Part shown: positions 1 through 51,354 of the stretch, piece by piece
Position numbering within the stretch: the stretch's first letter is position 1
Layout: every line of letters starts with the position of its first letter
IMG/VR virus record: IMGVR_UViG_3300048114_000266
Coordinates: 1 to 51,354 of that record
DNA: 51,354 bases
Strand: one strand, 5' to 3'
Origin: a virus
Program-made: the position numbers and the translations under genes
The notes under the pieces: generated by a model
What the model saw: the letters and a program-made list of their open reading frames with translations, nothing else
What the model was told of the DNA's origin: nothing
The model's database searches: none

Positions 1-583
1 CCGCTTTCAGTTTCCCCCATGCGATTGCACCGACGATTAGGCCGGCCCCGATTATCGGCCACCCGACGGCGGCGATTATCAGCCCGGCGGTAATCGTCCC
101 CCATTTCAGCGCGCCCAAGACGTCGCCGCCCATGATTTTCCCGAACGTGATTGCTCCCGTGATTGCCGCCGCGCCGATTACGGGCCATTTGATAGCCGAC
201 ATGATTGCGCCGGCCGATATGCCGCCGCTTACCAGCCCACCGATACCGCCCGAAAGTAGACTTCCCAAGCCGCCGGATAGGATACCGCCGGCCGCCGCGC
301 CACCGCCAAGCCCCAACAGCCCGCCGAACTTCCCGGCGATACCTCCTAATGTGCTACGTAGAATCGTAAAGCGTTCGTCGGCGTTTTCGGCTTCTTCGGC
401 CGCTTCTTCGGCTTGGTCGGCCGTTTGGCCCATTTCGTCGCCAAGTTCGCCGACTTGCGACCCCGCCGACCGTGCCGTTTGACCAAGTCCCGAATATGAT
501 TCGTCAAGTTGGCCGACTTGGGCACGGGATTCTTCGACGCCCGTAACCTTCGCTTGGTATTCGATAGTGCCGATTTGAACCAT
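1..583 (-). CDS. Tape-measure-like tail protein, N-terminal segment; the gene crosses the contig junction and continues at 51354..50419
   Basis: ATG at 583-581 with an in-frame stop just upstream (611-613). Frame stays open to position 1 and is in phase with ORF 50419..51345 when the 127-bp terminal overlap is collapsed. Translation begins MVQIGTIEYQAKVTGVEESRAQVGQLDE, then Gly-rich hydrophobic repeats. Sits directly downstream of the G/GT chaperone pair. Confidence 0.55.
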   Translation of the reverse strand, partial: MVQIGTIEYQAKVTGVEESRAQVGQLDESYSGLGQTARSAGSQVGELGDEMGQTADQAEEAAEEAENADERFTILRSTLGGIAGKFGGLLGLGGGAAAGGILSGGLGSLLSGGIGGLVSGGISAGAIMSAIKWPVIGAAAITGAITFGKIMGGDVLGALKWGTITAGLIIAAVGWPIIGAGLIVGAIAWGKLKA

Positions 584-628
584 TTGGGCGTATAGCGTTC
601 CCCGACCGCCTTAGCCCTTCGGCGTGCG

Positions 629-1138
629 TTACCCGTTGCGTGACTTCGCCTTCCGTTCTTGGCGCTTCCGACGCCGTTCGATTTTTTCTTCGCGTAGTTC
701 TTCGCGTTCGGCGTGAATCGACAAGCGACGGTCGACTTCGCCTTCGGTCATGCCGTCGGTCGACGACTTCGTGACGATTGCCGTCGGCGCGGGCGCTTCG
801 AAGACGCTGTCGGGAGCGTGGCGGTAGACGGTCGCCGCGACCACGGCACCCACAAGGGCGACGAATGTCCCGGCGTATTCTAAGCCGGCTAACGCCGTGG
901 CTACGCCGACGAAGGTGAACGGTGCCCAAACGCACGCGGCGACGCGACGACGCCCCACGCGGCTACACGCACGCCGCGCTACGGCCGCCAAGTCGTGACG
1001 ACGTTCGACGTGAACGCCGCGCCGGACGTCGCCGCGTATGTCCCGGCGCGTCAGCCCCGCGTTTTTCGTAAGAATGTATTCCGCGACTTCGCCTTGTATC
1101 TGCATTCCGCGAACGGTGCGCGCGGGGTCGCCGCGCAC
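629..1138 (-). CDS. T-like extension ORF, probably expressed as a G-T fusion by -1 frameshift from the upstream chaperone-like gene; own start (GTG 1138 or ATG 1105) uncertain
   Basis: ORF track 629..1138 lies in the -1 frame relative to 1147..1575 and is open across that gene's stop. Located between the putative major tail protein and the tape-measure gene. Has a hydrophobic segment and a basic C-terminus. Confidence 0.4.
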   Translation of the reverse strand: MRGDPARTVRGMQIQGEVAEYILTKNAGLTRRDIRGDVRRGVHVERRHDLAAVARRACSRVGRRRVAACVWAPFTFVGVATALAGLEYAGTFVALVGAVVAATVYRHAPDSVFEAPAPTAIVTKSSTDGMTEGEVDRRLSIHAEREELREEKIERRRKRQERKAKSRNG

Positions 1139-1146
1139 CGCCCGCT

Positions 1147-1575
1147 TTATTTTCCCCGGTCTTCGCCGCTCCCCGCGCCGAACGGGTCCGGCACTTCTTC
1201 GGTAAGGGCTTCGAAGTCCGTCGACATGGACGATAAGAAGGTCGCAAGACCGGGCACGCCGTCTTCGTGCGCCCCGAACCAGTCGACGACCATGTATTCA
1301 AGCATGTCCGTGTAGTAGTCCGAAGAAAGCGATTGCTGGGGCGACCCGTCGTCGCCTTCGCTGATTGTTAGGTTATTTTCTAACACTTCGTTCTTCTTCC
1401 GAAGCGGGACGTCGGCCTTCAATTCGAACCAGTACGCCCGCGCTTCGTCGTCTTCGTCGGGGTCGCCGGTCGTGACCCACACGGTGCGCGTCGCGGACTT
1501 GTCGACGGTCGCGTCTTCGAACGACCCAATTTCGTACCCTTCCGGCGGTTCAGGTTCCGGGGCGTCGTTTGCCAT
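1147..1575 (-). CDS. Tail assembly chaperone-like acidic protein (G-like)
   Basis: ORF track, ATG start, 142 aa, strongly acidic; sits between putative major tail protein and tape measure; ends in the slippery site. Confidence 0.55.
   Translation of the reverse strand: MANDAPEPEPPEGYEIGSFEDATVDKSATRTVWVTTGDPDEDDEARAYWFELKADVPLRKKNEVLENNLTISEGDDGSPQQSLSSDYYTDMLEYMVVDWFGAHEDGVPGLATFLSSMSTDFEALTEEVPDPFGAGSGEDRGK
1150..1156 (-). other. Candidate -1 programmed ribosomal frameshift slippery heptamer G_GGA_AAA
   Basis: Minus-strand sequence CGG GGA AAA TAA at 1158-1147 places a canonical X_XXY_YYZ heptamer on the last two sense codons of ORF 1147..1575; the -1 frame continues GGG AAA ATA AAG CGG GCG GTG... 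into ORF 629..1138. Confidence 0.5.
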
Positions 1576-1617: not shown

Positions 1618-2628
1618 TTAGGCCGGCGCAAGGTACGACGTCGACACTTGGGTATCCGTGACCAAGATTTGCGCCGTGTTCGGCGTAATCGTCACTTCGA
1701 CTTCGTTCGCACCTTCTTCGGGAATGCTATGGGGCGCTTCCGACAGCCCGATACTCCCCGCTTCGTAGCGGAACACTTCGCCCGACGGCTTGGTAAACTG
1801 AATCGACGCCGACCCCGCGTCGTTCGCGTTCAGTAGTTCGGTATATAGCGAATCGTTCGTCACGGTAATCGTCGCTGTAAGTTCGTGTTCGGCGTTCGCA
1901 TACAGCACTTCGAACGGGTCGCGGCCGGACGCTTCCGCGATATAGTGTCGCGGGTCGGCGTTGGTCGTAAGTTCGTGTTCGAAGTTCGTGACGCGGGCGT
2001 AGGAGTTTCCGAAAAGCGAAAGGTTGCTATTGACGTCGTCGAAAATCCACGGGTTCCGGTCGTCAGCGTCGACGCCCGTGGTCGGCGAACTTCCGGGCGT
2101 GACGCCCATAGCAAGCATGTCTAAGTCCGTGGTAAGCCGCCCTTCGTTATCGACCGAAATGGTCACGCCCGGCGGGACGCCGCCCGTGAACGTCCGCACG
2201 AAGTCGTCGGCCCCGCCACGGCCGAAGTATGCCGCTTCGATAGTGACCGACGGCGGCTTCTTGTCGTTCAGTACGTCGATAGTGTGTAGCGTCGTACCCG
2301 TTTCGCTGACTTCCGACCCCGTCGCGTCTAAGTTCGTGTCGGCGGTGACGGTGTCGTTCCCGAAGGCAAGCGCCACGGGGAAGCCGTCGACCGGGATAAC
2401 GGGGAGCGTGCCACCGTCGTAAGTCCGTTGCCCCGGATACTTGTCGGACAATTCGCGGGACGCTTCGCCGCTAATCGACCGTTCTTCAAGCCAATCAATC
2501 GACGGGTCGGGAAGTTCAGTTTCGCCGCTAATCTTTCCGAACGTGCGCGTGACTGACGCCGCCGTACCTTGTTCGGATTCGACCCCGACCAAGATTTGAC
2601 TGTCGTGCCGAACATACGGGTCGGACAT
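1618..2628 (-). CDS. Putative major tail protein
   Basis: ORF track, 336 aa, acidic Thr/Ser-rich; assignment is by position upstream of the G/GT pair only. Confidence 0.5.
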   Translation of the reverse strand: MSDPYVRHDSQILVGVESEQGTAASVTRTFGKISGETELPDPSIDWLEERSISGEASRELSDKYPGQRTYDGGTLPVIPVDGFPVALAFGNDTVTADTNLDATGSEVSETGTTLHTIDVLNDKKPPSVTIEAAYFGRGGADDFVRTFTGGVPPGVTISVDNEGRLTTDLDMLAMGVTPGSSPTTGVDADDRNPWIFDDVNSNLSLFGNSYARVTNFEHELTTNADPRHYIAEASGRDPFEVLYANAEHELTATITVTNDSLYTELLNANDAGSASIQFTKPSGEVFRYEAGSIGLSEAPHSIPEEGANEVEVTITPNTAQILVTDTQVSTSYLAPA

Positions 2629-5530: not shown

Positions 5531-6736
5531 TTACGCTAAGTTGTAGCGGCCGACGATACGACTGTCGGGGGCGCTTGCCGCAAGCGTCCCGTAGGCGTCG
5601 ACAGCGACGTCTTCTTGCGGCGTGGTGCGCGCAAGCGGGTGAAGCGTCGTGTCTTGAAGCATGGCCATGACGATAGTCGACATGTCCATGCCGACCAACA
5701 GACGCGACCCTTCGACGTCCGGGCACCCGTGCGATTCAAGCACCGGAACCCCGTCGATATTCAGCGCGCGGAACCCGAAGTTCAGTTCGTCGCCGGGCGA
5801 CGTGTAGCGCACGAAGTCGTCGACGGATTCTTTCAGGTCTTCGAAGGTCTTGTGGTCGGTGACGAAGACCAAGTCGTCGTAGTCGGCACCTTCGCGGCGA
5901 AGTTTCCGAATGTCCGTGCGGACGTCGCTTTCCGTGACGGTCGACCCCGACGCGTCGGTAAGCATGTTCGCTTCGTCGGCAAGGTCGAACAGTCCGTCGA
6001 AACTTGCGGCGTCGTTCCCGCTGACTCCCGCGACCGACCCGGTGCCCTGAATGATTTGGGCTTCTTCGTAGTGGCGAACGGAACGCACTAACGCTTCTTC
6101 CGTCAGCGAACGGGACGAACGAAGCGTCGACGTCGCCAATTGCAGGAAGTCGGTGACGGCCGTCTGACGGCCGTAGGGCACGACGCTGTATTCGTGCGTC
6201 GCGTAACTGTCGTCATTTTCGGGCCACGTTTCGTCGTTGCCCGAATTGCTACCGGGTTCGTGGAACCGGCCGACGTCGCCGTGTTCGGTAAGTTCGTCGG
6301 TCTTGTAGGTCGATTCTTGAATCGCGACGCGCGCCACCATGTCCGCAAGCGGCGTTTGCTTGCGGTCGGTGATTCGGACGTCGGGCGAAATGAAAATCGG
6401 GAGGCTAAACTGCGACGTGTCGGCCGCCTTCGACACGACTTCTTCGGCCGCCTTCCGAACCGACGCCCCGTCGCGAACCATGCGATTGAATTCGGTAAAG
6501 GCGTCGTCCCACCCGCCGTCGTACATTTTCGACACAAGGTCGACCACTTGGCCGCCCGTGTGGAAACCCATGTAGTCCTTGTAAAGGACTTCGTCGCCGG
6601 GAAGACCCGTTTCCTTCGAAACGGTATCCATCAGGTTCCCGAACGCGGCTTCGTGGGCTTCGACTTGTTCTTTCTTGCTAATCGTCCCGTTCCGTGCCGT
6701 CGAAGACTTGACGGTAGTATCGTAGTCGTTACGCAT
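5531..6736 (-). CDS. Major capsid protein (HK97-like by position and size)
   Basis: ORF track, 401 aa, ATG at 6736, immediately downstream of the scaffold/protease-like gene and portal. No fold search run. Confidence 0.6.
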   Translation of the reverse strand: MRNDYDTTVKSSTARNGTISKKEQVEAHEAAFGNLMDTVSKETGLPGDEVLYKDYMGFHTGGQVVDLVSKMYDGGWDDAFTEFNRMVRDGASVRKAAEEVVSKAADTSQFSLPIFISPDVRITDRKQTPLADMVARVAIQESTYKTDELTEHGDVGRFHEPGSNSGNDETWPENDDSYATHEYSVVPYGRQTAVTDFLQLATSTLRSSRSLTEEALVRSVRHYEEAQIIQGTGSVAGVSGNDAASFDGLFDLADEANMLTDASGSTVTESDVRTDIRKLRREGADYDDLVFVTDHKTFEDLKESVDDFVRYTSPGDELNFGFRALNIDGVPVLESHGCPDVEGSRLLVGMDMSTIVMAMLQDTTLHPLARTTPQEDVAVDAYGTLAASAPDSRIVGRYNLA

Positions 6737-6744: not shown

Positions 6745-8505
6745 TTAGTTGTCACCGCCGACCATGCGGGTGTTTGCGGACGCCGAATGTGCCGCTCCCG
6801 ACGCTTCGCTGTCGGCATTTTCGTCGTCGGTGACGCCGTCGTAGTCGACGCTAATGTCGTCGCCGTCACCGGACTTTTCGACTTGTTCGCGAAGGGCCTT
6901 TCGCGCGACTTCGGCGTCGTCGTGGCCCGTAATGTCCTTGACGATACGGTCGCCAAGTTGGTCCGGTTCCATCTTGTCCGCGTCGGGGTGTTCTTCGACG
7001 TCCGACCGAAGGTCGTCGACGTCGGACTTTAGGGCGCGCGCCCAATCCGGGGCGGCGTCCCAATCGACGCTGTCGGTGTCCGTCGACTTCGACACGTCGT
7101 CGCCGTCGCCACCGTCGGCGTCAGCGTCGGACTTGTCGACGTCGTCGGCGTCGCTGTCAGTATCGTCGTCGGACATGCTAATCCCGCCGTCGTCGCTACC
7201 GTCTTCGTCGTCTTCGCCCGACCCGTCTTCTTGGGTTTCGTCGCCGGTCCCTTCGCCCCCAGCGTCGCCGCCAAGGAATACGGAAAGGCCGGTGACTTGG
7301 CCTTCTTCGATACCTCCCGATTCGATAAGGGAGCGCACGAAGTCTTCGACAGTAGCGTCGCGCGACACCGACCCGTCGTCGACCATGCTACTGAATTCGG
7401 TAAGCATGGCCGACGCGGTGTCGGCGTTCATTTCCTGTTTGGTAGTCGTTTCCGTTCCGTCAGTCCCCGAATCACCGGGGTCGTCTTCGTCACTCATGCT
7501 AATGGTGTCGTAGTCGCACGAATCGGGTGTTTGGGCGGCAAGGTCGGCGACGTCGACGTCGACGACTTGCGCGGTCGCTTCTAACACTTCGACGTCGGGG
7601 CATTCGACCGAATCAGCGACGAAGTCGCGAATGTCTGATTCGTCGCGACCCGCTACTTCGGCAATTTCCCCGACCATGTCGGCGGCTTCGTCTTCCGATT
7701 CGGCAAGTTCCCGAATCTTGTCTTCGACGAATTCGCCGACGCCCTTCGACACCGATTCGTCCGCGTCGTCGGTTTCGCTCTTACTCATTTGCCCGTGCGA
7801 TTTGCCAAGAAGACTATCGACGTCGACGGGCTTCGCCCCGCCGTAAATCGACAGTCCGTTTAGGTCGCCCGACACGACGCGGTCCCACGTTTCGTCGTTA
7901 AACCGAATGCCCAAGACCCACGTACCTTCGGGGTATTCGCGGCTTTCCGTGCCGTCGGGCATTTCGAACGTCGTGTCTTGTTTTAGCGTCCAAGATTCGA
8001 CCGGCGTCCCCTTGCCGTCACGAAGGTCGTGGTCGCTGTCGACCTTGCGGTATTCGGAAAGGTATCGGTGGGCCGCGTCTTCGATAGCGGGCTTCGGAAT
8101 GACGTCGCCCTGTTTGTCGGCTTCTTTCGGGATTAGCACCGGGGCAAAGGCGATTTGCTTGACGTCGTCACCGCTGTCGTCGCGGTCTTTCTGAACGTAA
8201 AGCGTTGCCTCCGATTGCCAACGGTGCGACGACCCCGAAGGGTCGTCGGCGTCTTTCGCGATTACCCATTCGCTATCTTGTGCGGGCGTGTCTACCGGCG
8301 ACACGAATTCGACTTCTAAGCCGGTAAGGACTTCTTGGGCTTGCGGGTCGCTAAGGGCTTCTTTGCCTTCTTCTTCTAACCAGTTACAGAATTCTTCCGG
8401 GTCGTCTATGCCGGGTTCGTCCGACATAGCGGCTACGCACCCGTCAAAGGTGTCGAAGTCGTAGCCGGGGAAGGGTTTTCCGACTGGTTTTTGATTGTCG
8501 CCCAT
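6745..8505 (-). CDS. Scaffold or prohead-protease-like acidic protein
   Basis: ORF track, 586 aa, ATG at 8505; long low-complexity Asp/Ser/Gly tracts; lies between portal and capsid genes. Confidence 0.5.
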   Translation of the reverse strand: MGDNQKPVGKPFPGYDFDTFDGCVAAMSDEPGIDDPEEFCNWLEEEGKEALSDPQAQEVLTGLEVEFVSPVDTPAQDSEWVIAKDADDPSGSSHRWQSEATLYVQKDRDDSGDDVKQIAFAPVLIPKEADKQGDVIPKPAIEDAAHRYLSEYRKVDSDHDLRDGKGTPVESWTLKQDTTFEMPDGTESREYPEGTWVLGIRFNDETWDRVVSGDLNGLSIYGGAKPVDVDSLLGKSHGQMSKSETDDADESVSKGVGEFVEDKIRELAESEDEAADMVGEIAEVAGRDESDIRDFVADSVECPDVEVLEATAQVVDVDVADLAAQTPDSCDYDTISMSDEDDPGDSGTDGTETTTKQEMNADTASAMLTEFSSMVDDGSVSRDATVEDFVRSLIESGGIEEGQVTGLSVFLGGDAGGEGTGDETQEDGSGEDDEDGSDDGGISMSDDDTDSDADDVDKSDADADGGDGDDVSKSTDTDSVDWDAAPDWARALKSDVDDLRSDVEEHPDADKMEPDQLGDRIVKDITGHDDAEVARKALREQVEKSGDGDDISVDYDGVTDDENADSEASGAAHSASANTRMVGGDN

Positions 8506-8780: not shown

Positions 8781-11528
8781 TTACGTCAAGTGATTAACGT
8801 GGGTGTCGTAGCGGTCTATCCAATCGTATAGCGTGTTTGGCGACACCTTGCCCCGTTCTTCGACGTCGTATTCGTCGGCTTCGACTAACCGCCGATTGAA
8901 TTCCCGAAGCGCGCCCCGCTTCGAACCCGATTCTTCTAAGCATTCACGTAGGAGGTTCGGAACGTGATTGCCCAAGACGTCTTCTAATTCCTGCATACGC
9001 CGCGTGGGGTTCGTCGCCTTCGCGACGCGCTTGACGACGTCCGCATACGTTTCGTCGTGGGCCTTCGACGCTTCGACGGGTTCGACGTTCGCGTCGCCGG
9101 CTTCGAATTGGTCCGCGAAGTCGTCGGCCGACGGCACGTCGACGTCCGGCGCGTCGTCGCCGGTCCCCGGAACCCGCACGAACGTATGCCGTTCGTTCGG
9201 GTGAATCGTATGCTTGCGGAACGATAGGTTATCGAAGTATTCGTCGTGAACGTTCCGTTCAGCGTCGATTAGTTCGGGGAGCGTGACCGGCGTCCCGCCG
9301 TGGTCCGGGTTCGTCATGTCTTTCAGGTCTTCGCACGCGTCGGTCGTGCGACTGTCGTCGGGACCGACCCATTTGAACTTCGCGTCGTCAAGCCCACGGT
9401 CGCGATAGCCTTCTTCGCGCGCTTCGTTCAGTACCTTAGCCGATTCGGTGCGCGCTATCGTTTCCAAGTCGTCGGGGTCCGCACGGGGGAGCGCGTCGCT
9501 AAGATTGTCGACGATTGAATCTAACGACCACCCTTGCGGGTTCGTCAGCGCGTCGCTAAGCGTGTCTTGAATCGTAGTAGCCACACGTCCCGGCACCGAC
9601 GCGAAGTCGCTGAACACGGCCCCACGGTCGACGACGTCTTCTAACGCGGACATGACGAAGTCGGGGACGTCTTCGTCTTCGGCCCACGCCCGCTTTTCTA
9701 TGTCGTCAAGCGACTTCGGGGCTATCTGTCGGTCGAACGCCCGCAACAGCGTCGTGTCTAACTTCGCGACTTCGTCTTTCGTCAGTCGGTCGCGGTCGCC
9801 GTCCCCGTCACTCCCGTTTCCCGAATCACCCTTCGTCGTGGGGCCTTGTTCGACGGCGTCGAAGTCTATGTCGTCGAAGTTAACGCCGTCGTATTTGTCG
9901 ATAAGGTCTTGCACCGTTCCGGGGCCGACGCCGAAGACTTCCGCATGTGGGTCGTGGGTTTCCGGCGGGTTCGGCGGGTAAACGACGTCGCCGCCGTCAG
10001 TATTCCGCGCCCGTTTCACGTCGAAGACGACGCCGCCTTCGTCGGCAAGGTCGTCTAAGAAGCGTTCGAAGTCGCCCGATTCGTGGTCTACCGCTTCCCC
10101 GCCGACGTGATAGGTAAGCGGGACGCCACCCTTCGAACGGTCGACGCGAATGTCGGCTTCGTCGGGGTCGTCGACCGACCCGAATAGGCCACCGCCGCCA
10201 CCGCCACCGCCGACGTCGCCTTCTTCGATTGGTCCGTCTTCGACCACTAACTTGCCGTCGCGGAAGGTGACGTCGCGGCCGGCGTTGGCCATTTCCTTCC
10301 CGGCGGTCGCTTGCGCTTCGATAACGTCGGCGCGCGTCTGACGTTCGTCGGCGGTTTGCTCCCGTTCGAATTCGAAGGCAAGGTCGTCGCTAATTTCGGG
10401 CCACACGTATGCCCGGTTAAGGGCTTCTTCTAATTGGCGAAGGGTGACGCGGAAACCGCGCTGTTTGTATGCTCCTTGCTGGGATTCGTCGGTGGCGCGA
10501 TTGACGTTTTCGAAGTCGAAACCCGCATACGACGGGTTAACCTTGAAGACCGACCCCAAGACCGTGACCCAATACTTCGAACGGTCAAGAATTTGTAGTT
10601 CCTGATAATTGTGATTTATCGCTTCGAAGTTTACGGGCGTCTTCGAATAGCCGACGCGGTGGCGTTCCCCTTCGTCCAAGCGCATGGATTCGACGAAGGT
10701 TTCCCAATCTTCGTCGTTCGGTAGTCCGCCGTAATCGTCTAAGGCTTCCGGGGAAAGGACACCGGGCGGGCCGCCTTGCATTAGGTCTAACCGCTCCTTT
10801 TCTGCAAGTTCTTCTAACAATTCGACTTCGTTTTGGGCCTTTTCTAAGGGGCCTTGCCCATAAAATCGGTCGGGGCGCGACGACCATTCGACCCACACAA
10901 TATCGTTAACGTCGAATTCGTCGGTCTTCTTCCCCTTGCTTTGCGACACTTGCACGAAGCCTTCGGTAATCCCGTGCCGGTCGACTTGCTTGAATAGCGA
11001 CGCGCTGTCGACCGGGACAAGTTCGGCGACTTCGTCACTATCTTCGTAGTAGTGCTTGACAAGCGTCGCGTCGCCCAATTCCAACAGTACCCGCGTCGTC
11101 GCTTCAAGCATGTCGCGGAACGACGCTTGCGCGGGCGGCAATTGCCGCATGTGCCTTTCGACCTTCGCTAAGGCTTCGTCGGAAATGTCGGCGTCTTCGT
11201 CGCGGGGTTTAATCGACCAATTCGCGGCGGCGACGTCTTGCGATAGCGTGTCGATATAGGCTTGCACGACGGCGTTCGCGGATATGTCGCGCAAGAAGAC
11301 GGGGTCGTAGGGCTTCGTCTTGGCGTTACCCTGAACGGCGTCGCGAACGTCGTCGTTTACGTTCACGCGCCGGTTAATATCACCTCCCTTTTCCGCTGTT
11401 TCCGGGGAATTGTACCGCTTGCGGCGTCGTGACCGGACCCGCTGACGGCGTTCGCGACCGCTACGGGCGTCGCCGCCGTCCGCGAAGGGTGACGTAATCC
11501 CCTTGACAAATTTACTAAGGCGCGACAT
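8781..11528 (-). CDS. Portal protein fused to a MuF/SPP1-gp7-like head morphogenesis domain
   Basis: ORF track, 915 aa, ATG at 11528. C-terminal half carries IARTESAKV, WVGPDDSRTTDACEDL and HPNERHTF; a Gly8 tract (around 10186-10215) separates the halves. Confidence 0.6.
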   Translation of the reverse strand: MSRLSKFVKGITSPFADGGDARSGRERRQRVRSRRRKRYNSPETAEKGGDINRRVNVNDDVRDAVQGNAKTKPYDPVFLRDISANAVVQAYIDTLSQDVAAANWSIKPRDEDADISDEALAKVERHMRQLPPAQASFRDMLEATTRVLLELGDATLVKHYYEDSDEVAELVPVDSASLFKQVDRHGITEGFVQVSQSKGKKTDEFDVNDIVWVEWSSRPDRFYGQGPLEKAQNEVELLEELAEKERLDLMQGGPPGVLSPEALDDYGGLPNDEDWETFVESMRLDEGERHRVGYSKTPVNFEAINHNYQELQILDRSKYWVTVLGSVFKVNPSYAGFDFENVNRATDESQQGAYKQRGFRVTLRQLEEALNRAYVWPEISDDLAFEFEREQTADERQTRADVIEAQATAGKEMANAGRDVTFRDGKLVVEDGPIEEGDVGGGGGGGGLFGSVDDPDEADIRVDRSKGGVPLTYHVGGEAVDHESGDFERFLDDLADEGGVVFDVKRARNTDGGDVVYPPNPPETHDPHAEVFGVGPGTVQDLIDKYDGVNFDDIDFDAVEQGPTTKGDSGNGSDGDGDRDRLTKDEVAKLDTTLLRAFDRQIAPKSLDDIEKRAWAEDEDVPDFVMSALEDVVDRGAVFSDFASVPGRVATTIQDTLSDALTNPQGWSLDSIVDNLSDALPRADPDDLETIARTESAKVLNEAREEGYRDRGLDDAKFKWVGPDDSRTTDACEDLKDMTNPDHGGTPVTLPELIDAERNVHDEYFDNLSFRKHTIHPNERHTFVRVPGTGDDAPDVDVPSADDFADQFEAGDANVEPVEASKAHDETYADVVKRVAKATNPTRRMQELEDVLGNHVPNLLRECLEESGSKRGALREFNRRLVEADEYDVEERGKVSPNTLYDWIDRYDTHVNHLT

Positions 11529-11565: not shown

Positions 11566-12597
11566 TTAGTCACGCTGTCTTTCCGCCGATTCGACGTCGC
11601 TGTCGTGGGTACAATCCCCGAATACATGATAGTAGTACGTCCCTTTCGTCACGTCGCAACGGTCGATAACAGACGATACAGGTTCGTCACCGCGCCCCTT
11701 GTGTTCGCGCCGTAGTGTCTCACACTTCGACTTCGTCACCCGGTCGACGTCGGGATTCGGGGCGTCGCCACCGTGTAGACACCGCCCGAAAACGTGCCGC
11801 CGAATCGACGATTCGTCGCGTTCCATGTCGCCGGCTAACGCCGCGACCGGAACGCCGCCGCGATAGCGGGCGCGCAAGCGGTCGCATTCGGCCTTTTCTA
11901 TCGGACCCGGCGCGTTGGGTTCGGCCGGCGCGACGTCGACGTCACCGTGCCCACACGCGCCCGTAGCGTGCCGGTGGGCCGTGCCGGTCCCGACAAGACA
12001 CGCACGGGCGACGTCGGCAATCGTCACGCTGTCGTTCCGCCGATAGGTGCGCCGTATTCGGGCACACGTTTCCGCTCCTAATTCGTCGCGGCCGTAGTCG
12101 TTCGGGAAGTCGTGGTCGCACCGACCGAAGACGTGTCGGTTCACCGCGTTAGACGAACGGTAAAATTCGTCGCGAAGGTCGTCGACAGACGCGCCTTCGC
12201 GGAACGTTTCGCGCAAGCCCCGGCATTCCGACCGCGTGATTCGGGGCGACGTCGTCGCGTCGACGGGCGTGTCGTGGGCGCACCCGCCGGTCGCATGTCG
12301 GAAGACGACCGACGGGTGTAGGTCGGGATACGTGTCGACGACGTCTTTGGTCCGGTCGGCGTCGGCCATGTCTTGACGTATAGCCGCGCATTCTTCGACC
12401 GTCAGCCCGTCGACGACCGCGTCGGGGTCGCCGTTAGATACGTACCCGCGAATCGCGTCGGGGTCGCGGTCGTCGCGGTCGACGCGGGCGTATCTGACAA
12501 TCGCTTCGGCTTGGTCGCGACTAAAGTCAGTCCGCGACGACAGCGTGTCGACCCGGTCGACGTCGCCGGGAGTTAGTTCGACGTCGTCTAAATCCAT
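11566..12597 (-). CDS. Protein built from five tandem Cys/His modules
   Basis: ORF track, 343 aa. Five repeats with the pattern C-x2-(I/L)R ... H-x3-G-x-C-x-H, for example HATGGCAHD, HVFGRCDHD, HATGACGHG, HVFGRCLHG, HVFGDCTHD. Confidence 0.55.
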   Translation of the reverse strand: MDLDDVELTPGDVDRVDTLSSRTDFSRDQAEAIVRYARVDRDDRDPDAIRGYVSNGDPDAVVDGLTVEECAAIRQDMADADRTKDVVDTYPDLHPSVVFRHATGGCAHDTPVDATTSPRITRSECRGLRETFREGASVDDLRDEFYRSSNAVNRHVFGRCDHDFPNDYGRDELGAETCARIRRTYRRNDSVTIADVARACLVGTGTAHRHATGACGHGDVDVAPAEPNAPGPIEKAECDRLRARYRGGVPVAALAGDMERDESSIRRHVFGRCLHGGDAPNPDVDRVTKSKCETLRREHKGRGDEPVSSVIDRCDVTKGTYYYHVFGDCTHDSDVESAERQRD

Positions 12598-12600
12598 TCG

Positions 12601-12900: not shown

Positions 12901-12942
12901 GCGGCGAAATGTCGGTCACAAGACGAAAAGCGTGCCGGTGGA

Positions 12943-13751: not shown

Positions 13752-13754
13752 ATC

Positions 13755-14174: not shown

Positions 14175-14230
14175 AGGTTCGCACCGTTAGCCCCTTCGTA
14201 ACCCCGGTATAAAATAGTGTCGCCGTTGGT
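14175..14230 (-). promoter_or_regulatory. Promoter-leader cassette (variant)
   Basis: Gene-strand order cgacact-ATTTTATA ... ggtgcgaacc-t-ATG. Confidence 0.5.
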
Positions 14231-15641: not shown

Positions 15642-15642
15642 T

Positions 15643-37642: not shown

Positions 37643-37700
37643 GGTTCGCACCTTGCGACCTATCGTTTCGTCGTAGGGGGTAAAAGCGTGTCGGTAATAT
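37643..37700 (-). promoter_or_regulatory. Promoter-leader cassette (variant)
   Basis: ggtgcgaacc box directly abuts ATG 37642; accgacacgc-TTTTAcc and TATATTA lie further upstream. Confidence 0.45.
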
Positions 37701-39358: not shown

Positions 39359-39420
39359 AGTGGTTCGCACCTACTACCCACTAACAGGGCTACGGTAATA
39401 AAGGTGTCGGCGTTGCACCA
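39359..39420 (-). promoter_or_regulatory. Promoter-leader cassette
   Basis: Gene-strand cgccgacacc-TTTATTA-ccgtagccctgttagtgggtagtaggtgcgaaccact-ATG. Confidence 0.6.
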
Positions 39421-39441
39421 CGGGTTAGGTATTGCCTGATT

Positions 39442-39458
39442 GGTATATTAGCGACATA
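39442..39458 (+). promoter_or_regulatory. BRE/TATA-like promoter of the TFB-like gene
   Basis: cgacatac-TTTTATG about 35 nt upstream of ATG 39489. Confidence 0.45.
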
Positions 39459-39488
39459 CTTTTATGCCGGTCGGCGGTACGTGTCGGT

Positions 39489-40538
39489 ATGGAAACGGAA
39501 CCAGATACCGACGCGACCGACCGGATTCGTTCGATTGCCGAACGGGTCGGGTTCGACGACAGTATCGGCGACTTGGCTACCCAAGTGTTCACGAACGCCG
39601 TCGAAGAAGGCGTCGTCACCGCCGTCGTCGACCGCGACGAAAGCGGTCGCTTCGAAGGTGAAACGCGGAACTACCCGGCGGCCGCATACCCGGCGGCCGT
39701 GTATGCCGCCGCGCGGATTCGTGACATTCCGACCAAGCCGTCCGAAGTCGCTGACGCGGCCGACGTCGACGCTGACGTCGACGCTGTCGGTGACTATTAC
39801 AAGGACATGCTTGGGGCGCTACCCTACACCGTCGAACCGGAAGACCCGGTCGATTGGGTGCGCCGGCTTTGCGACGACTTGGACGTGTCCCCCGGCTTCG
39901 AAACCGACGCCGTCGACTTGTGCGGCGACGCTGTCGGTGCGAACCTGCATAACGGCAAGGCCGTGTCCGGGTTCGCCGCCGCCGTCGTCTACGCGACGTC
40001 GGAATATCGCGACGCTGACGTCGGGCAAGACCGTATCGCCGAAGTCGCCGACGTGTCGCCCGTGACGATTCGGAACCAGTACCGCGACGTCTTGGAATTG
40101 TGGGAACGGGCGGCCGAACCGGGCGACCCCGACGTGATTCGGGCCGCCGTTAACGACGTGTGTGACCGTATCGACGGGCTTCCCTCCCGCGTGCGGGCCG
40201 ACGTCGCCGACCTTGCCGCCGACGCTATCGACGCCGACGCCGACTTCGTCAGTAACACCGACCCCGACGGCGTGGCGGCCGGTATCGTCTACGTGGCGGC
40301 GAAAGACGCCCGCGTCGACGTCAGTCAAACCGAAGTCGCTGACGTCGCGGGCGTGTCGAAGTCGACCGTCGTGAACCGGGTAAACGACGTCCGCGATTGG
40401 CGGCGTCGGAAGGACTTCGAAGCGAAGGAATACAATACGCTAAAGCAAATCGCGGCCGACCACGGCGTCGACGTCGGGCAACAGCCCGAACGCCCCTATC
40501 TTATCGACCGCTTAGTCGAAGCGGGTGTCGACGCATGA
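39489..40538 (+). CDS. TFB/TFIIB-core-like transcription factor with no N-terminal zinc ribbon
   Basis: First ATG of ORF track 39432..40538. SGFAAAVVYATSEYRDADVGQDRIAEVADVSPVTIRNQYRDVLEL closely follows the pattern I recall for the second cyclin repeat and HTH of archaeal TFB; two further similar modules are present. The N-terminus has no Cys pairs. Confidence 0.6.
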   Translation: METEPDTDATDRIRSIAERVGFDDSIGDLATQVFTNAVEEGVVTAVVDRDESGRFEGETRNYPAAAYPAAVYAAARIRDIPTKPSEVADAADVDADVDAVGDYYKDMLGALPYTVEPEDPVDWVRRLCDDLDVSPGFETDAVDLCGDAVGANLHNGKAVSGFAAAVVYATSEYRDADVGQDRIAEVADVSPVTIRNQYRDVLELWERAAEPGDPDVIRAAVNDVCDRIDGLPSRVRADVADLAADAIDADADFVSNTDPDGVAAGIVYVAAKDARVDVSQTEVADVAGVSKSTVVNRVNDVRDWRRRKDFEAKEYNTLKQIAADHGVDVGQQPERPYLIDRLVEAGVDA

Positions 40539-41892: not shown

Positions 41893-42309
41893 ATGACAGC
41901 ACTACAAGACTTTGCGGAATGGTTCAAGGCGCGGGAAACGAAAATCGAAGCGTGGTATAGCGACGGCGTCGGCCGCTTCGCGTTCCGCGTGACCGTCGAC
42001 GGCCAAGCGTTCGTATGTGCGGCCCGGTCGTCGCCACCGAAGGACGGGAAGACGTCGATAATGGCCCGTGTCGCGGGGAAGGCGCAAACGTCAGACGCGC
42101 TTATCGCCCTTCGATTGCCGGGCGGGATTCGTGTCTTCGACCCGGTGACGGTCTTGGATACCGGGGAGCGTGACACGCCCGCCCAATCCGACCGTCGCGA
42201 ACGCGACGAATCATGGGTCGCGGTCGACCTATCCGTCGCTTGCACGTTCAGCGAATGGTACGACGGTGACGCGAAGCCGCTTCGGTTCGCCGACGTCACC
42301 GAAGCCTAA
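41893..42309 (+). CDS. Hypothetical protein
   Basis: ORF track, 138 aa; a short gcgaaccct leader precedes the ATG. Confidence 0.5.
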   Translation: MTALQDFAEWFKARETKIEAWYSDGVGRFAFRVTVDGQAFVCAARSSPPKDGKTSIMARVAGKAQTSDALIALRLPGGIRVFDPVTVLDTGERDTPAQSDRRERDESWVAVDLSVACTFSEWYDGDAKPLRFADVTEA

Positions 42310-43228: not shown

Positions 43229-43729
43229 ATGTCTTCCGCGAAGGGCGATAGGTGGGAACGGCATTACGTGAACGCGCTTAGTGCCGACGACCCCGACGAC
43301 GATAGCGACGACGTCGAACGGGTCGGTATCGACGACTTCGCGTTAGTCGAACCGTTCACGGCGTTACGCCTTCCCGCTTCCGGCGCGGGGCGTTCCGCCG
43401 ACCTTCCCGACATTCATGCGTGGCTTTGCCCCGACGCCCATACAGTCCGACAGTACGCCGCCGAATCGAAGGCGGGGGCCGACCGGGTGTATTTGGATAA
43501 CGACGAAGTAGACGCGCTTGTGCGCTACGCTGACGACACGGGGGCGACGCCGGTCGTGTTCGTTCATATCGACCACGAACACGCACATGACGACTTAGGC
43601 GGCGATTACGTCGTCGCTATTGACGAACTACATTCGACAGCGTCGGGCTACACGTTCACGAAGACCCGCGACGCCCCGACAGCCCGGACGTTCGCCGAAT
43701 GGGTCGACGACCCCCAATCGGTCGCTTAG
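43229..43729 (+). CDS. hjc: Holliday junction resolvase (Hjc-like)
   Basis: ORF track, 166 aa. GDRWERHYVNAL ... LRLPASGAGRS ... PDIHAW ... AAESKAG ... VYLDNDEVDALVRYADDTGATPVVFVHI follows the pattern I recall for archaeal Hjc (G.xFER ... SGS ... PD ... E.K ... Y ... P..AV). Confidence 0.55.
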   Translation: MSSAKGDRWERHYVNALSADDPDDDSDDVERVGIDDFALVEPFTALRLPASGAGRSADLPDIHAWLCPDAHTVRQYAAESKAGADRVYLDNDEVDALVRYADDTGATPVVFVHIDHEHAHDDLGGDYVVAIDELHSTASGYTFTKTRDAPTARTFAEWVDDPQSVA

Positions 43730-44160
43730 TCGCCACGGTCGCGGTCGCTTCGTCCCTCCCGATACAGGTTCGGCCGGTCAAGGTCGACCCCAAGTTCTTC
43801 GGCGATTGCCGCTTGGTTAGAAATAGACACTTCTTGGCGGCGTTCCATTTTCCGAACGTCGCCGTGTATGTCTTCGACTTCGTCGCGAAGGTCGGCGTGC
43901 ATTTCTTCGAATTCTTCGCGTAGTTCCGTGTTCGCTTCGTCAAGGCGGTCGAACCGACTTTCTGAATCGGCAAGGTGGCCGTCCGACGTCGGGTCGTCTT
44001 CGTCGCCGAAGACGCGCCGATACACCGGGACCGCGAAGGTAAAGTGCCGTCTGACTAACCACGCCACGACGACCACAAGGCCGCCTAAGACGAACGTCAC
44101 CGCCCAAAGCCCCAGCGACGACGGCGCAATCGGGCCGACTTGCAGTAGTGTCGACGTCAT
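43726..44160 (-). CDS. Membrane-anchored coiled-coil protein, last gene of the tail operon
   Basis: ORF track, 144 aa; N-terminal hydrophobic helix, then charged helical region. Confidence 0.5.
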   Translation of the reverse strand: MTSTLLQVGPIAPSSLGLWAVTFVLGGLVVVVAWLVRRHFTFAVPVYRRVFGDEDDPTSDGHLADSESRFDRLDEANTELREEFEEMHADLRDEVEDIHGDVRKMERRQEVSISNQAAIAEELGVDLDRPNLYREGRSDRDRGD

Positions 44161-44164: not shown

Positions 44165-46261
44165 TCACCTCCCCGTCCGGCCTTCGACAGTAGTTTCGAC
44201 CATATGCCCCGACGAATCCGTATTGTCGACGATTACGCCGACCGATTGTTCGCCACCCGTCGAATTCGTGTAGGAGGCAAGCGGCGACCCGGTTTCGTCG
44301 TCGAAGACGGTAGACCCGTCGCCCGACAGTATCGTCGATTGGGTCGTGTAGCCGCCCGAATTGTCGAACGTGACAAGTTCGACGTTCACGCCCGTCGGCA
44401 TGGCTTGGGCTAACCCGGTCGTCAGCGTCGCTTTGTCTATTTCCATAGTTTCGCCGTCGGCTAAACTATCGACCACGACGACGGCTTGCGTCGTGTTCCC
44501 GACGTTCCGCGACAGCGACCCCGACACGCGGTCGTGTGGTCGGCTAAGTTCCGGTCTTTGAATGGTTCCCGCCGCGTCGACTAAGGTAGACCCCGTGATA
44601 GTATCTAACCGTTCGTGCAAGACGGCACGCCGGTAGTTTACGCCACCCGACCCGTCGGCTTCCCCACGAAGGCTTAGGATAGTGCCGCCGCCGACTGAAT
44701 ACGATTGGCCATATTCCCGCCCGGCGTCCGCACTTCCGTCGACCGGGGCCGAAATGGTCGTGTTCCCCCACGAACGATTTGCCGGGAATGCGACCGCCGC
44801 GCCCCCTTTTGGAATGAACGACCCGAACGTTTCGAAGTCGGAAGTAGAATCTATATTTCCGTATAGTGTAAGCAGTCCGTCGACCCGAAAGTCGGTAGTG
44901 ACGCGACTGCCGCCACCCGTGTTCGGGTGGTCGCCCGTTACGTAAATCCCCGACTGTGGCGAAAATCCGACCGGAACCGCGACGTCTTTCGAAGACAGTC
45001 CACCCGACCCGTCAGCGTACCCCAAAATCGAAAGGAATGGTTGGCCGGCCACGCCGAACGAATACGACACTTCGTCGCCCGAATTTTCGATTCCTGAAAG
45101 GGGGTGGTCGAACGAACTTCCCCGGAAGGATACGTCACCGCCGACGATAAGTTCGCTGAACACGCGGACGTATTCGCGTTGCACGCCGCCCGAACCGTCG
45201 GCGTCGACGGCGGCCCACAATTGCGAAGACCCACCCGCCGAAAGGCCCACGCCGACGGCGGAACCCGCCGACGCATTCGAATCGACCGGGGCTTCGGCAA
45301 GGGAATTTCCGGGCGTTCTGTTTGCGGGGAACGATATGGCCGCCCCACCCTTCGGGATAAATGCCCCGAACGTTTTGAAATCCCCATTAATATCTATATT
45401 ATCGTAAGATGATATTGCCCCATTTACTTGAAGCGACCCCGTGAATTGGTTATCGGCGGAGGCTTCGCTATTTGACCCGGTGACATACATCCCTCCGCCC
45501 CCGTGTATTTGGCCGTATATGTCGACGCTACCAGATATTTGGTTATCCGCTTGTGCGTCGGGGTGCGACCCGGTTACAAGAAGCCCGCTGTCGTATGTCG
45601 TCGGCTTAGCGAATTGCACTTCGCCGTTTTGGATACCTCCCGACCCGTCCGATTCGGTGTAGATTTTCGCGAATTCTTCGCCGTCGACCGCGAACGTGTA
45701 TGATACTTCCGTCCCGGCGGACGTGTTCGATTCGACTTGAATGTCGAATAACGGGCCGAATTGCGTCGTTCCCGGCGTCGCTTCGAACCCCGACGACAGT
45801 AGTGCCGAAGCCGCCGGGTGCGCCCGCCAATTGTGAATATCGCCTTCGGTGACGTCGCCGGCCGCGTGGGGGACCGCTACAAGAGCCAACAGTAGCCCGT
45901 CCGACGGCGTTTCGGGAGGTTCGGGGTTCGGGGCCGGCGTACCTTCCGCGACGGCGTAGGTGCCCGCACTACTGTCGAAATACACCAAGTCGACGCGACG
46001 GTCGTCTTGGCCCGACGTCGTCGTTTGCGGCCCGGTCGACAGCGTGAACGACGTCGACGACGGGGAGTAGGTAGCACTATCATACGACAAGTTCGTCGCG
46101 GCGGCTACCTGAATCCCCATAGCGGTATTGGGGTCGGGCGTCACTTGCGCGTCGCCGTTGTTTTGGATACCATTACCGACGAACGCTTCGGTAATCGCTT
46201 CTAAATATCGGCCGAAGAAGGTTCCCCCTTGTGGGGCTTCGAACGGTTCGGCTTCGGGCAT
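44165..46261 (-). CDS. Tail fibre or receptor-binding-like protein with internal repeats
   Basis: ORF track, 698 aa; duplicated block DFKTFGAFIPKGGAAISFPANR / DFETFGSFIPKGGAAVAFPANR; Gly/Ser/Thr-rich. Confidence 0.6.
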   Translation of the reverse strand: MPEAEPFEAPQGGTFFGRYLEAITEAFVGNGIQNNGDAQVTPDPNTAMGIQVAAATNLSYDSATYSPSSTSFTLSTGPQTTTSGQDDRRVDLVYFDSSAGTYAVAEGTPAPNPEPPETPSDGLLLALVAVPHAAGDVTEGDIHNWRAHPAASALLSSGFEATPGTTQFGPLFDIQVESNTSAGTEVSYTFAVDGEEFAKIYTESDGSGGIQNGEVQFAKPTTYDSGLLVTGSHPDAQADNQISGSVDIYGQIHGGGGMYVTGSNSEASADNQFTGSLQVNGAISSYDNIDINGDFKTFGAFIPKGGAAISFPANRTPGNSLAEAPVDSNASAGSAVGVGLSAGGSSQLWAAVDADGSGGVQREYVRVFSELIVGGDVSFRGSSFDHPLSGIENSGDEVSYSFGVAGQPFLSILGYADGSGGLSSKDVAVPVGFSPQSGIYVTGDHPNTGGGSRVTTDFRVDGLLTLYGNIDSTSDFETFGSFIPKGGAAVAFPANRSWGNTTISAPVDGSADAGREYGQSYSVGGGTILSLRGEADGSGGVNYRRAVLHERLDTITGSTLVDAAGTIQRPELSRPHDRVSGSLSRNVGNTTQAVVVVDSLADGETMEIDKATLTTGLAQAMPTGVNVELVTFDNSGGYTTQSTILSGDGSTVFDDETGSPLASYTNSTGGEQSVGVIVDNTDSSGHMVETTVEGRTGR

Positions 46262-49931: not shown

Positions 49932-49935
49932 GGTG

Positions 49936-50415
49936 TTAGGACACGTATGCGTCTAAGAAAGTCCATTCAAGCGTGGCCGAATATGTCCGTCCCGGCGATT
50001 CGTCCATGCTTTCCGACGGGTCGAATGCTGTAATGACGCCGTCAATTTCGCGACCGTCGTAGACCAACGTGTCGAAGCCGTTATCGACGTCGAACCCCCA
50101 TTCTTTCGACGCCCGCATTAGTTCGTCGCGGAAACCATAATCGTCGTCGTCGGGGGTGGCGGGCGACGACCCGTCGTAAACTCCCGAATTTGGGTAGTCG
50201 TCGGGTGTCATTCCCTGAATGTCTATGCTGATAGTGTAGCGTTGCAAGTCAAGCACTAACTTCCCGCCAAGAATTTCCCGCGACGCCGCCGATATGACTG
50301 AATCCATGACCAAGCCGTTTTCGACCGACGTTTCGACGTTATCGGCCTTCAATCGGAATTCTTCGCTCCCGTCGTTCCGGCGAAGCCGAACCGCTAAATC
50401 GGAATTGTCGGCCAT
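49936..50415 (-). CDS. Tail protein immediately downstream of the tape-measure gene
   Basis: ORF track, 159 aa. Confidence 0.55.
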   Translation of the reverse strand: MADNSDLAVRLRRNDGSEEFRLKADNVETSVENGLVMDSVISAASREILGGKLVLDLQRYTISIDIQGMTPDDYPNSGVYDGSSPATPDDDDYGFRDELMRASKEWGFDVDNGFDTLVYDGREIDGVITAFDPSESMDESPGRTYSATLEWTFLDAYVS

Positions 50416-50418
50416 AGT

Positions 50419-51354
50419 CTAACGAACCCCCGCGCGGTCGTTAGTCTTGTCACCGACACGTTCCGCAATCTTGTCGGCAAGTTCTTCTAACGTCCGGCGG
50501 TCGACGTTCGTCGGGTCGAATTCGCCCGACAAGTCGATTGTAATGCCGTCGATTGCGACCGACGTCCCGCCGCCACCGCCGCCCGACGCGGCCGCACTAA
50601 CAAGCGGTTCGGGAATGACGGCTTCGCCCTTGTGAATTTGGGCGACGCCGTCGGATTCTACCATGCCGCCCGAAGCCATTCCCCGGACTTGTTCGCCCGC
50701 CCATTCACCAAGCCCGTGAATCGGGTTATTCGTCATTACGTTTTCTATCGTATTCGCCGCTCCGGGGTTATTTTCAGCGAATCGTGAACCCGCCCTTCGT
50801 GCCGGACCCCACCCGTCGCCACCGCCGGCTATTTCGGCAAGGATTTGGCCCGCCGTCAGCGTCGGCCATACGATTGCGCCGACTATCATACCGCCCGTGA
50901 TAGTCCCGAACCCGATTGCGGCGGCTATCAGCCCGCCCGTGACCGCGCCGAACGGTATCGACTTCAATAGTTGGCCGCCCGATATGACCTTGAACGACAT
51001 GGCCCCGACGACTAACGCCGCGCCGATTACGGGCCACCCCAGCGCGCCGACGATTATGCCGGCCCCAATCGTCGCCCACGACAGCGCGCCGACGACGTCG
51101 CCCGCTTTCAGTTTCCCCCATGCGATTGCACCGACGATTAGGCCGGCCCCGATTATCGGCCACCCGACGGCGGCGATTATCAGCCCGGCGGTAATCGTCC
51201 CCCATTTCAGCGCGCCCAAGACGTCGCCCGCTTTCAGTTTCCCCCATGCGATTGCACCGACGATTAGGCCGGCCCCGATTATCGGCCACCCGACGGCGGC
51301 GATTATCAGCCCGGCGGTAATCGTCCCCCATTTCAGCGCGCCCAAGACGTCGCC
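50419..51354 (-). CDS. Tape-measure-like tail protein, C-terminal segment (same gene as 1..583)
   Basis: ORF track 50419..51345; the TTG start there is an artefact of the window edge. Contains two identical 42-aa repeats plus one diverged copy, then a Gly-rich C-terminus. Confidence 0.55.
   Translation of the reverse strand, partial: GDVLGALKWGTITAGLIIAAVGWPIIGAGLIVGAIAWGKLKAGDVLGALKWGTITAGLIIAAVGWPIIGAGLIVGAIAWGKLKAGDVVGALSWATIGAGIIVGALGWPVIGAALVVGAMSFKVISGGQLLKSIPFGAVTGGLIAAAIGFGTITGGMIVGAIVWPTLTAGQILAEIAGGGDGWGPARRAGSRFAENNPGAANTIENVMTNNPIHGLGEWAGEQVRGMASGGMVESDGVAQIHKGEAVIPEPLVSAAASGGGGGGTSVAIDGITIDLSGEFDPTNVDRRTLEELADKIAERVGDKTNDRAGVR
51103..51354. repeat. Two perfect tandem copies of a 126-bp in-frame repeat inside the tape-measure-like gene; a further copy forms the window start (1-127)
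   Basis: The string gacgtcgcc-cgctttcag recurs at 51094, 51220 and 51346, giving a 126-bp period; encodes the 42-aa unit LGALKWGTITAGLIIAAVGWPIIGAGLIVGAIAWGKLKAGDV. Confidence 0.8.

Follow-up and report, generated by a model that had tools for sequence, protein, structure and literature searches.

The stretch of DNA analysed here, IMG/VR virus record IMGVR_UViG_3300048114_000266 (positions 1 to 51,354, hereafter the window), comprises 51,354 bases with 61% G+C and covers the entire genome of an uncultivated haloarchaeal tailed virus. The sites GATC, CTAG and AGCT are absent from the window, and the non-palindromic trinucleotide GAG/CTC has been nearly eliminated from it and from its relatives. 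The termini of the window form an exact direct repeat of 127 bases (positions 1-127 are identical to 51228-51354) and a tape-measure-like gene is split, with its halves at opposite ends. Thus, the record represents a circularly assembled complete genome of ~51.2 kb, and the initial annotation, made from the sequence alone, was justified in speaking of a whole genome. Since the tandem repeat at this site is the exact opening point of the circular assembly, its true copy number is uncertain. Over 12,733 bases, the window matches an independent Logan assembly (SRR32281932) at 100% identity.

Genes were called by ourselves with a simple codon-likelihood caller, which returned 63 genes covering 89% of the window. 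The following features are referred to below.

1-127: copy of the terminal direct repeat, 127 bases, inside the 126-base tandem repeat of the tape-measure-like gene
1618-2628, minus strand: tail tube protein (Pfam Phage_tube_2)
5531-6736, minus strand: major capsid protein, 50% identity to its counterparts in the Haloarcula viruses HCTV-2 and HHTV-2
6745-8505, minus strand: prohead protease, S78 type (Pfam)
8781-11528, minus strand: portal fused to a MuF-like domain (Pfam)
16769-18244, minus strand: terminase large subunit (Pfam Terminase_6N; 44% identity to Humcor1, 42% to BJ1)
30730-31101: PadR (Pfam)
34571-35377, minus strand: PCNA-like sliding clamp (weak Pfam hit; conserved among the relatives of the clade)
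35439-35521, minus strand: tRNA-Leu with anticodon UAA, the only tRNA gene of the window
36221-37651, minus strand: most conserved early protein of the clade, 476 amino acids, 58-70% identity (clade comparison)
39432-40538, plus strand: virus-encoded TFB (TFIIB homologue), marker gene of the GAG-avoiding clade (Pfam)
43229-43729, plus strand: Hjc Holliday-junction resolvase, the sole nuclease domain detected (Pfam)
51067-51354: 126-base tandem repeat (42 codons), 2.3 copies with 96% matches, running into the terminal repeat

By Pfam and tblastn, an HK97-type capsid module (terminase, portal, protease, capsid and tail tube) is present together with archaeal-type TFB, PCNA and Hjc. Judged from these predicted genes, the window fits the haloarchaeal tailed viruses (archaeal Caudoviricetes). 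Among cultured viruses, HCTV-2 and HHTV-2 (Saparoviridae) are nearest by capsid protein; the window shares with them 31-55% identity in the genes for capsid, portal, protease and tail (41-50% for capsid, portal and protease). No similarity of its terminase to the terminases of these two viruses was detected, and almost no early genes are common to them and the window. Because of this mosaic of HCTV-2/HHTV-2-like capsid genes and a Humcor1/BJ1-like terminase, the window was not filed in Saparoviridae; it probably belongs to a separate family-level group outside that family. A nucleotide search of a phage collection with the window gave no match and two early-gene queries against IMG/VR returned no relatives. 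Most early genes lacked a functional assignment in Pfam, PHROGs and PDB sequence searches. For the conserved 476-amino-acid protein a model with a confident core was obtained, to which no fold match was found. Further core proteins of the clade are encoded at 26373-27224, 41893-42309 and 43726-44160. All 33 homologues of the viral TFB at E <= 1e-20 come from viral contigs of metagenomes, several with a length of 42-52 kb, and none is cellular. The gene suggests that the virus may redirect transcription initiation of its host.

No DNA methyltransferase was found in the window by Pfam or tblastn. A combined search for nucleases and methyltransferases (Pfam with all genes of at least 120 amino acids, PHROGs with 20 unknown proteins and PDB sequence searches with four large proteins) yielded only Hjc.

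The initial annotation had reported that GATC appeared to be absent, where 150-200 copies would be expected, and that CTAG and AGCT had not been noticed in a less careful check. A direct count over the 51,354 bases gives zero for each of the three words. Base composition predicts 179 copies of each, in agreement with the earlier estimate for GATC, and a maximal-order Markov model predicts 90 GATC, 99 CTAG and 61 AGCT. Dinucleotide-preserving shuffles contain 275.8 +/- 15.7 two-strand matches of GATC, which are read as ~138 sites because palindromes match on both strands. In a codon-aware null model, the 52 best genes (41.8 kb) were resampled synonymously in 300 replicates, with the proteins and the virus's own biased codon usage fixed. 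This model predicts 93 +/- 9 GATC, 54 +/- 6.5 CTAG and 51 +/- 6 AGCT, and the lowest values among all replicates are 63, 38 and 33, respectively. The observed counts are thus far below expectation for GATC under every null model and for CTAG and AGCT under every model applied to them.

The strong selection against GATC proposed earlier can be seen directly in the choice of codons, which depends on the neighbouring codon. Isoleucine is encoded by ATC in 112 cases after codons ending in A and in 107 cases after codons ending in T. After codons ending in G, where ATC would create GATC, it is used in none of 129 cases, and after codons ending in C, where it would create CATC, in two of 97. Likewise, GAT is used for aspartate in 63 cases before A and in 59 cases before T, but never among 296 cases before C (GATC) and only twice among 951 before G (GATG). 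A CTN leucine codon never follows an xAG codon, a combination that would produce AGCT. This context-dependent choice shows selection at the level of the DNA.

The emphasis of the initial annotation on GATC reflects a real effect but is too narrow, as GATC is one of more than 12 purged words. Counts for these words were taken on both strands. CANTG is absent (178 copies expected), as are CCWGG and GCWGC. Among the palindromic hexanucleotides, CCGCGG, CCCGGG, GGCGCC and ACCGGT are each at zero, with Markov expectations of 47, 27, 25 and 19. In total, 37 of the 64 palindromic hexanucleotides and 851 of all 4,096 hexanucleotides are missing, so that palindromes are over-represented among the avoided words. 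Several non-palindromic words are retained in a few copies: CATC/GATG in 13 (observed/expected 0.04), GCAG/CTGC in 25 (0.04), CCAG/CTGG in 40 (0.07) and CAGG/CCTG in 57 (0.10). For CATC, GCAG and CCAG this corresponds to a depletion of 14-25 times. The avoided words overlap with motifs predicted for haloarchaeal restriction-modification families (PMC6471742).

The depletion stands out most for GAG/CTC, with 143 copies versus ~1,860 expected (observed/expected 0.08); CAG/CTG is reduced to 0.27. The tetranucleotide CGAG/CTCG is completely absent, compared with 664 +/- 22 copies in shuffles and 267 +/- 14 when proteins and own codon usage are fixed (the null expectations range from 267 to 708). 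Depletion of GAG and CTC is seen in each of the three coding frames and on the antisense strand. Therefore, the signal resides in the double-stranded DNA and not in translation or RNA. The remaining GAGs are evenly spread along the genome and 90 of the 143 are part of GGGAG, which has an observed/expected ratio of 0.52. Conversely, GAA/TTC is enriched 2.3-fold and AAG has a ratio of 1.51.

It was considered whether the residual GGGAG copies are Shine-Dalgarno sites. This was rejected, as a start codon follows within 20 bases for only two of the 143 GAGs. These two, at 20139-20141 and 44169-44171 (CTC on the plus strand), belong to perfect copies of the Shine-Dalgarno-like sequence GGAGGTGA, which precede the starts of the minus-strand genes 19907-20131 and 43726-44160 by 10-11 bases.

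Some words are over-represented in the window. CpG has an observed/expected ratio of 1.74, TCGA is present in 792 copies (4.4-fold), GTCGAC in 249 copies versus 17 expected and GACGTC in 229 versus 17. Probably, these excesses arise because codons are driven towards NCG, CGN, GAC and GTC when AG/CT and CA/TG words are removed by recoding.

The codon usage of the window differs strongly from that of HCTV-2 and HHTV-2. Glutamate is encoded by GAA in 98% of cases (18% in HCTV-2/HHTV-2) and glutamine by CAA in 81% (5%). CTC accounts for 3% of the leucine codons (41%), and TTA and TTG together for 28% (2%) because CTC and CTG are avoided. Other codons are still typical of high-GC haloarchaea, with GAC at 93% for aspartate, GTC at 67% for valine and TTC at 89% for phenylalanine. 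The tRNA-Leu(UAA) of the window decodes UUA and UUG, the codons standing in for CTC and CTG. No tRNA gene was found in ten related or reference loci scanned. In amino-acid composition, Gln, Trp, Met and Leu are reduced to 0.46-0.68 of their frequencies in HCTV-2/HHTV-2 (Gln 0.46, Leu 0.68) and Asp is increased 1.54-fold. This suggests that the pressure to avoid words reaches the protein level, the comparison being between different viruses and not between orthologues. The cost to the virus is visible in rewritten Glu, Leu and Gln codons, a shifted amino-acid composition and the acquisition of a tRNA-Leu(UAA).

Relatives of the window were recovered by searches with the capsid, terminase, TFB and core protein. 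They lie on metagenomic contigs of ~42-52 kb and were mostly obtained as partial loci of up to 21 kb. Their terminases share 56-82% identity. The loss of GAG is common to about ten further related contigs, and 11 independent contigs were sampled for the clade-wide reading. The observed/expected ratios of GAG/CTC in loci of more than 10 kb are as follows (L numbers denote the loci fetched).

L004 0.36 and L012 0.34 (both from one contig)
L037 0.30
L035 0.14
the window 0.08
L005, L007, L011, L015 and L036 0.03-0.05
L013, L014 and L041 0.01
L034 no copy in 21,080 bases, compared with 476 +/- 17 in shuffles

Two short fragments of 4-6 kb (L006 and L008) are without GAG and a third (L010, 6.6 kb) has a ratio of 0.16. 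In more distant haloviruses, proviruses and host DNA, GAG/CTC is found at 1.0-2.0. The clade also shares a dinucleotide signature, with AG/CT at ~0.5, CA/TG at ~0.55, CpG at ~1.75 and AA/TT at ~1.35.

The flanking bases in which GAG is tolerated depend on the lineage. In L034, L013, L014 and L041 GAG is depleted in every flanking context (0-0.01), and the survivors in L013 and L014 are found in A/T-rich contexts, several of them in the Shine-Dalgarno-like AAGAGGT or TGAGGT. GGGAG is spared in the window, AAGAG/ATGAG in L035 and CGAGW in L037, where it accounts for 203 of 228 copies. L037 is from a contig of 49.8 kb (ENA ERZ10759792); its 203 CGAG copies are mostly CGAGA or CGAGT, and it contains no GGAG. 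CGAG, the main GAG context of this relative, is wholly missing from the window.

GATC is one of the most changeable words within the clade. It is absent from the window, L010, L014, L034 and L036 and present in the other ten clade loci at ratios of 0.76-3.0, seven of which are at ~1.0-1.2. Among the fetched loci, only L013 (0.89) and L035 (0.40) retain CTAG, and CATG, TGCA and GTAC likewise vary between lineages. L013 and L035 have an N6/N4 methyltransferase in common (58% identity), and both keep CTAG and GATC. L012 has a GATC ratio of 1.97 and carries a homologue of an HCTV-2 methyltransferase.

Additional genes were noted at these loci. A C5 cytosine methyltransferase is encoded in L034 (9150-9848, minus strand), adjoining the TFB gene, and in L035 (1395-2812, minus strand). 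The TFB-adjoining position in the window is occupied by an unrelated protein of 509 amino acids (37841-39370). The interval between terminase and portal of the window (11566-16725) holds some eight small genes, of which one is encoded on the opposite strand; several are kept only within the clade.

A distant homologue of the 476-amino-acid protein is present in another group of haloviruses, represented by L038 (ENA ERZ23491536, a 38 kb contig) and L039 (JGI 3300023197, a 34 kb contig). There, GAG is high (1.9), but the ratio of CAC/GTG is only 0.13-0.18 and that of GCAG 0.01-0.07. Haloviruses may thus more generally be deeply depleted in a trinucleotide, with the word differing by lineage.

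The absence of palindromic tetranucleotides has been described for haloviruses before. None of the seven isolates of the HF1 group (HF1, HF2, Serpecor1, Hardycor2, HRTV-5, HRTV-7 and HRTV-8) contains GATC or CTAG, and these viruses also lack many palindromic hexanucleotides, as does the window; AGCT is additionally absent from HRTV-7 (PMC7230728). In our count of the first 25 kb of HRTV-7, GATC, CTAG and AGCT are 0/0/0, as in the window. The published explanation is the same as that considered here, namely escape from Dam/Mrr, Zim and further restriction-modification systems (PMC7230728). In contrast to the window, the viruses of this group are myoviruses of an unrelated family and most possess an N6 methyltransferase. 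GAG/CTC is normal in HRTV-7 (1.24), and avoidance of non-palindromic words was not analysed in that study (PMC7230728).

HCTV-2 and HHTV-2 (50 kb each) resemble the window in their GATC/CTAG/AGCT counts of 0/0/0 and 0/2/0, respectively. They differ in G+C content (67-68%) and show no purge of non-palindromic words, with GAG/CTC at 1.07 and 1.52, CATC at 1.8-2.0 and CCAG at 1.2-1.7. Furthermore, HCTV-2 has three methyltransferases and none was detected in the window.

Non-palindromic tetranucleotides are also avoided by Hardycor1, a siphovirus of Halorubrum coriense. AGCT, CTAG and TGCA are missing from it, and there is strong avoidance of CAGC, CATC and CCAG (PMC7911831). In our own count, CATC is at 0.03, CCAG at 0.02, CAG at 0.24 and CpG at 1.64, similar to the window. 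Unlike the window, it has GATC at 2.03, a putative Dam methylase, no TGCA and GAG/CTC at 1.46. The absences in these isolates were ascribed to restriction-modification and Mrr-type defences (PMC7230728, PMC7911831).

Methylation of CTAG is almost universal in Halobacteria, and Dam-type methylation of GATC is frequent in Halorubraceae. An orphan methylase for CTAG (m4C) is present in 155 of 182 Halobacteria and a GATC methylase (m6A) in 15 of 20 Halorubraceae (PMC10609329). The Mrr protein of Haloferax restricts GATC-methylated DNA, and the predicted haloarchaeal restriction-modification motifs include GGCGCC, CCCGGG, CTCGAG, CANCATC, GATC and CTAG (PMC6471742). Taken alone, the absence of GATC, CTAG and AGCT is ordinary for a halovirus and restriction evasion is its accepted reading. 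No description of GAG or any trinucleotide avoidance in haloviruses was found by full-text literature searching, and the clade-wide near-elimination of GAG/CTC was thus not found described before.

Most likely, with a probability of about 0.75, the sites were lost as an escape from sequence-specific host nucleases, a passive protection in a virus without detectable methyltransferase. Classical restriction enzymes would cut unmethylated sites and Mrr-like type IV enzymes would cut sites methylated by the previous host. A genome without the site would be invisible to both kinds of nuclease. Complete avoidance could therefore be superior to carrying a methyltransferase. Each site would constitute an independent risk of a lethal cut and thereby be subject to purifying selection. 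Sites are removed mainly by neighbour-dependent synonymous recoding and probably in part by amino-acid replacement, and the resulting odd codon usage is offset in part by the viral tRNA-Leu(UAA). For GAG/CTC, whose near-loss is a signal of the same kind, the best guess is a set of host systems that share a GAG core, either as type I half-sites or as a frequent-cutting enzyme. Candidates would be several systems with GAG-core sites of 4-5 bp, a type I GAG half-site, a cutter similar to Nt.CviQII or a nuclease encoded by the clade. Several systems of 4-5 bp are favoured because the tolerated contexts are lineage-specific.

The initial annotation had named a host restriction system or a methylation-dependent nuclease as the agent. 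This agrees with the published haloarchaeal data and with the relatives. The counts directly show the absences and their statistical weight, their independence of strand and reading frame, the codon choice by context and the switching of single words from lineage to lineage; together with the excess of palindromes, these patterns fit purifying selection by sequence-specific nucleases. That nucleases exert the selection, and which ones, we infer from the word patterns.

Several points weigh against evasion of host nucleases. We are aware of no haloarchaeal enzyme specific for GAG or CGAG, and the combined action of ordinary systems of 4-6 bp would hardly deplete a trinucleotide 12-fold or completely. 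The loss of GAG is constant in a clade with variable palindrome avoidance, which would also fit a virus-borne cause. The link between methyltransferases and retained sites is based on two or three partial loci, and HCTV-2 lacks GATC, CTAG and AGCT despite its three methyltransferases. Finally, two scans of 185,579 species-representative genomes revealed no provirus of the clade. The scan with a capsid profile gave no hit, and the scan with a terminase profile yielded nothing closer than distant proviruses (41-45% identity) from Halorubrum, Haladaptatus, Halopelagius and Haloarchaeobius, in which GAG is normal. The haloarchaeal chromosomal and proviral loci fetched have GAG at 1.0-1.55. The viral TFB offers no hint of a host, as all 33 homologues are viral and metagenomic.

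For the GAG/CTC part only, a single host enzyme or enzyme family with an effective non-palindromic GAG specificity of 3-4 bp, or type I systems sharing a GAG half-site, is a tentative possibility. Each GAG would then carry a cost, and the clade would have disposed of all of them. It would account for the low GAG ratios throughout the clade (0.08 in the window and 0-0.36 in the eleven other fetched loci of more than 10 kb, from ten contigs), for the 21 kb of L034 without a single GAG where 476 +/- 17 are expected, for the confinement of the few GAGs of L013 and L014 to A/T-rich Shine-Dalgarno-like contexts and for the exact absence of CGAG from the window against an expectation of 267-708. The tolerated contexts, which differ by lineage, look like several targets of 4-5 bp and not like one of 3 bp. 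We know of no such enzyme from archaea. A type I site additionally needs its second half-site, and selection on a single GAG would be weak.

Precedents for short sites exist outside archaea. Nt.CviQII (R^AG) and Nt.CviPII (^CCD) of the chlorella virus nicking and modification systems (Nt.CviQII occurs with M.CviQII) have recognition sequences as short and non-palindromic as GAG/CTC (PMC3017599). These are systems of eukaryotic algal viruses with self-protection by methylation and not by avoidance. No homologue was detected in the window, in which AAG, a part of RAG, is enriched (1.51). In haloarchaea, the motifs GAGN6VTGAC, GAGN4RTAA and GAGN5TAC, which contain GAG half-sites, are predicted for two type I gene families (PMC6471742).

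A broader proposal is that a family-level siphovirus clade, defined by the shared TFB, PCNA and core protein, eliminated GAG/CTC, in some genomes without remainder, and in most members CAG/CTG, the cause being an undescribed nuclease, nickase or restriction-modification family with a GAG core of 3-4 bp, encoded by host or virus. We regard this proposal as doubtful.

An unlikely variant is a frequent-cutting nuclease encoded by the clade itself, which would shred the GAG/CTC-rich host chromosome and spare the viral genome by site avoidance. GAG avoidance tracks the virus clade with its TFB, PCNA and 476-amino-acid core protein, whereas host-dependent palindromes vary. In ordinary haloviruses and in haloarchaeal DNA, few words are as common as GAG and CTC (1.0-1.6), and the many early genes without assigned function could include such an enzyme. 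However, no nuclease domain other than Hjc was detected in genes of at least 120 amino acids, the lineage-specific contexts would demand co-evolving specificities and we know of no precedent.

The four remaining explanations were rejected, each being contradicted by specific results. Context-dependent mutational bias, for example from G to A at GAG or CAG and without selection on words, is highly unlikely. It could be read from the dinucleotide signature common to the clade and from the replacements, which are mostly transitions (GAG to GAA, CAG to CAA and CTC to CTT). A bias of this kind would have to bring a dozen unrelated words, many palindromic, down to exactly zero and to create sharp contrasts between neighbours, with CGAG at 0 versus GGGAG at 0.52 and ATC common after A or T yet missing after G. 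Single words are switched on and off between close relatives, and back-mutation would hold the equilibrium well above zero.

The usual protospacer adjacent motif (PAM) of haloarchaeal type I-B CRISPR-Cas systems is TTC. If GAG/CTC were the PAM of the host, its removal would block spacer acquisition and interference, and a strand-symmetric target of three bases would be expected of a PAM. This explanation is very improbable indeed: TTC is enriched in the window as GAA/TTC, selection on each PAM would be weak because a matching spacer is also required, and the 4-5 bp contexts of the different lineages do not fit a fixed PAM.

Adaptation of codons to the tRNA pool of the host, or mimicry of host composition, is scarcely credible. 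The bias is extreme (Glu GAA 98%, Gln CAA 81% and CTC 3% of Leu), but GAG and CTC are equally depleted in three frames and on the antisense strand, the codons of Asp, Val and Phe remain of the high-GC haloarchaeal type and the fetched haloarchaeal chromosomal and proviral loci have normal GAG ratios. The need for an own tRNA-Leu(UAA) points to a mismatch with the host and not to a match.

For an artefact of sequencing, cloning or assembly no point in favour was found, and its probability is negligible given the identical independent assembly over 12.7 kb, the presence of the same protein in both JGI and Logan data, the recurrence of the pattern in related contigs from many unrelated samples and the intact reading frames with homologues in cultured viruses.

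Regarding evasion of host nucleases, the absence of GATC, CTAG and AGCT is one more case of a documented halovirus trait. Of greater interest is that a non-palindromic trinucleotide has been nearly removed throughout a clade, that Glu, Leu and Gln have been recoded and that a tRNA compensates for this. The near-total loss of the trinucleotide that is normally the preferred Glu codon illustrates how defence pressure at the DNA level reshapes codon usage, amino-acid composition and tRNA content. A genome purged of a dozen short words is a negative image of the nucleases of its hosts, and because close genomes differ word by word, the clade forms a natural experiment in which words can be matched to defence systems and viral methyltransferases. 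Word profiles could help to assign hosts to uncultivated haloviruses. The loss of GAG points to an undescribed short-motif recognition system in haloarchaea or their viruses; a GAG-core system, if real, would be an archaeal counterpart of the frequent cutters of chloroviruses.

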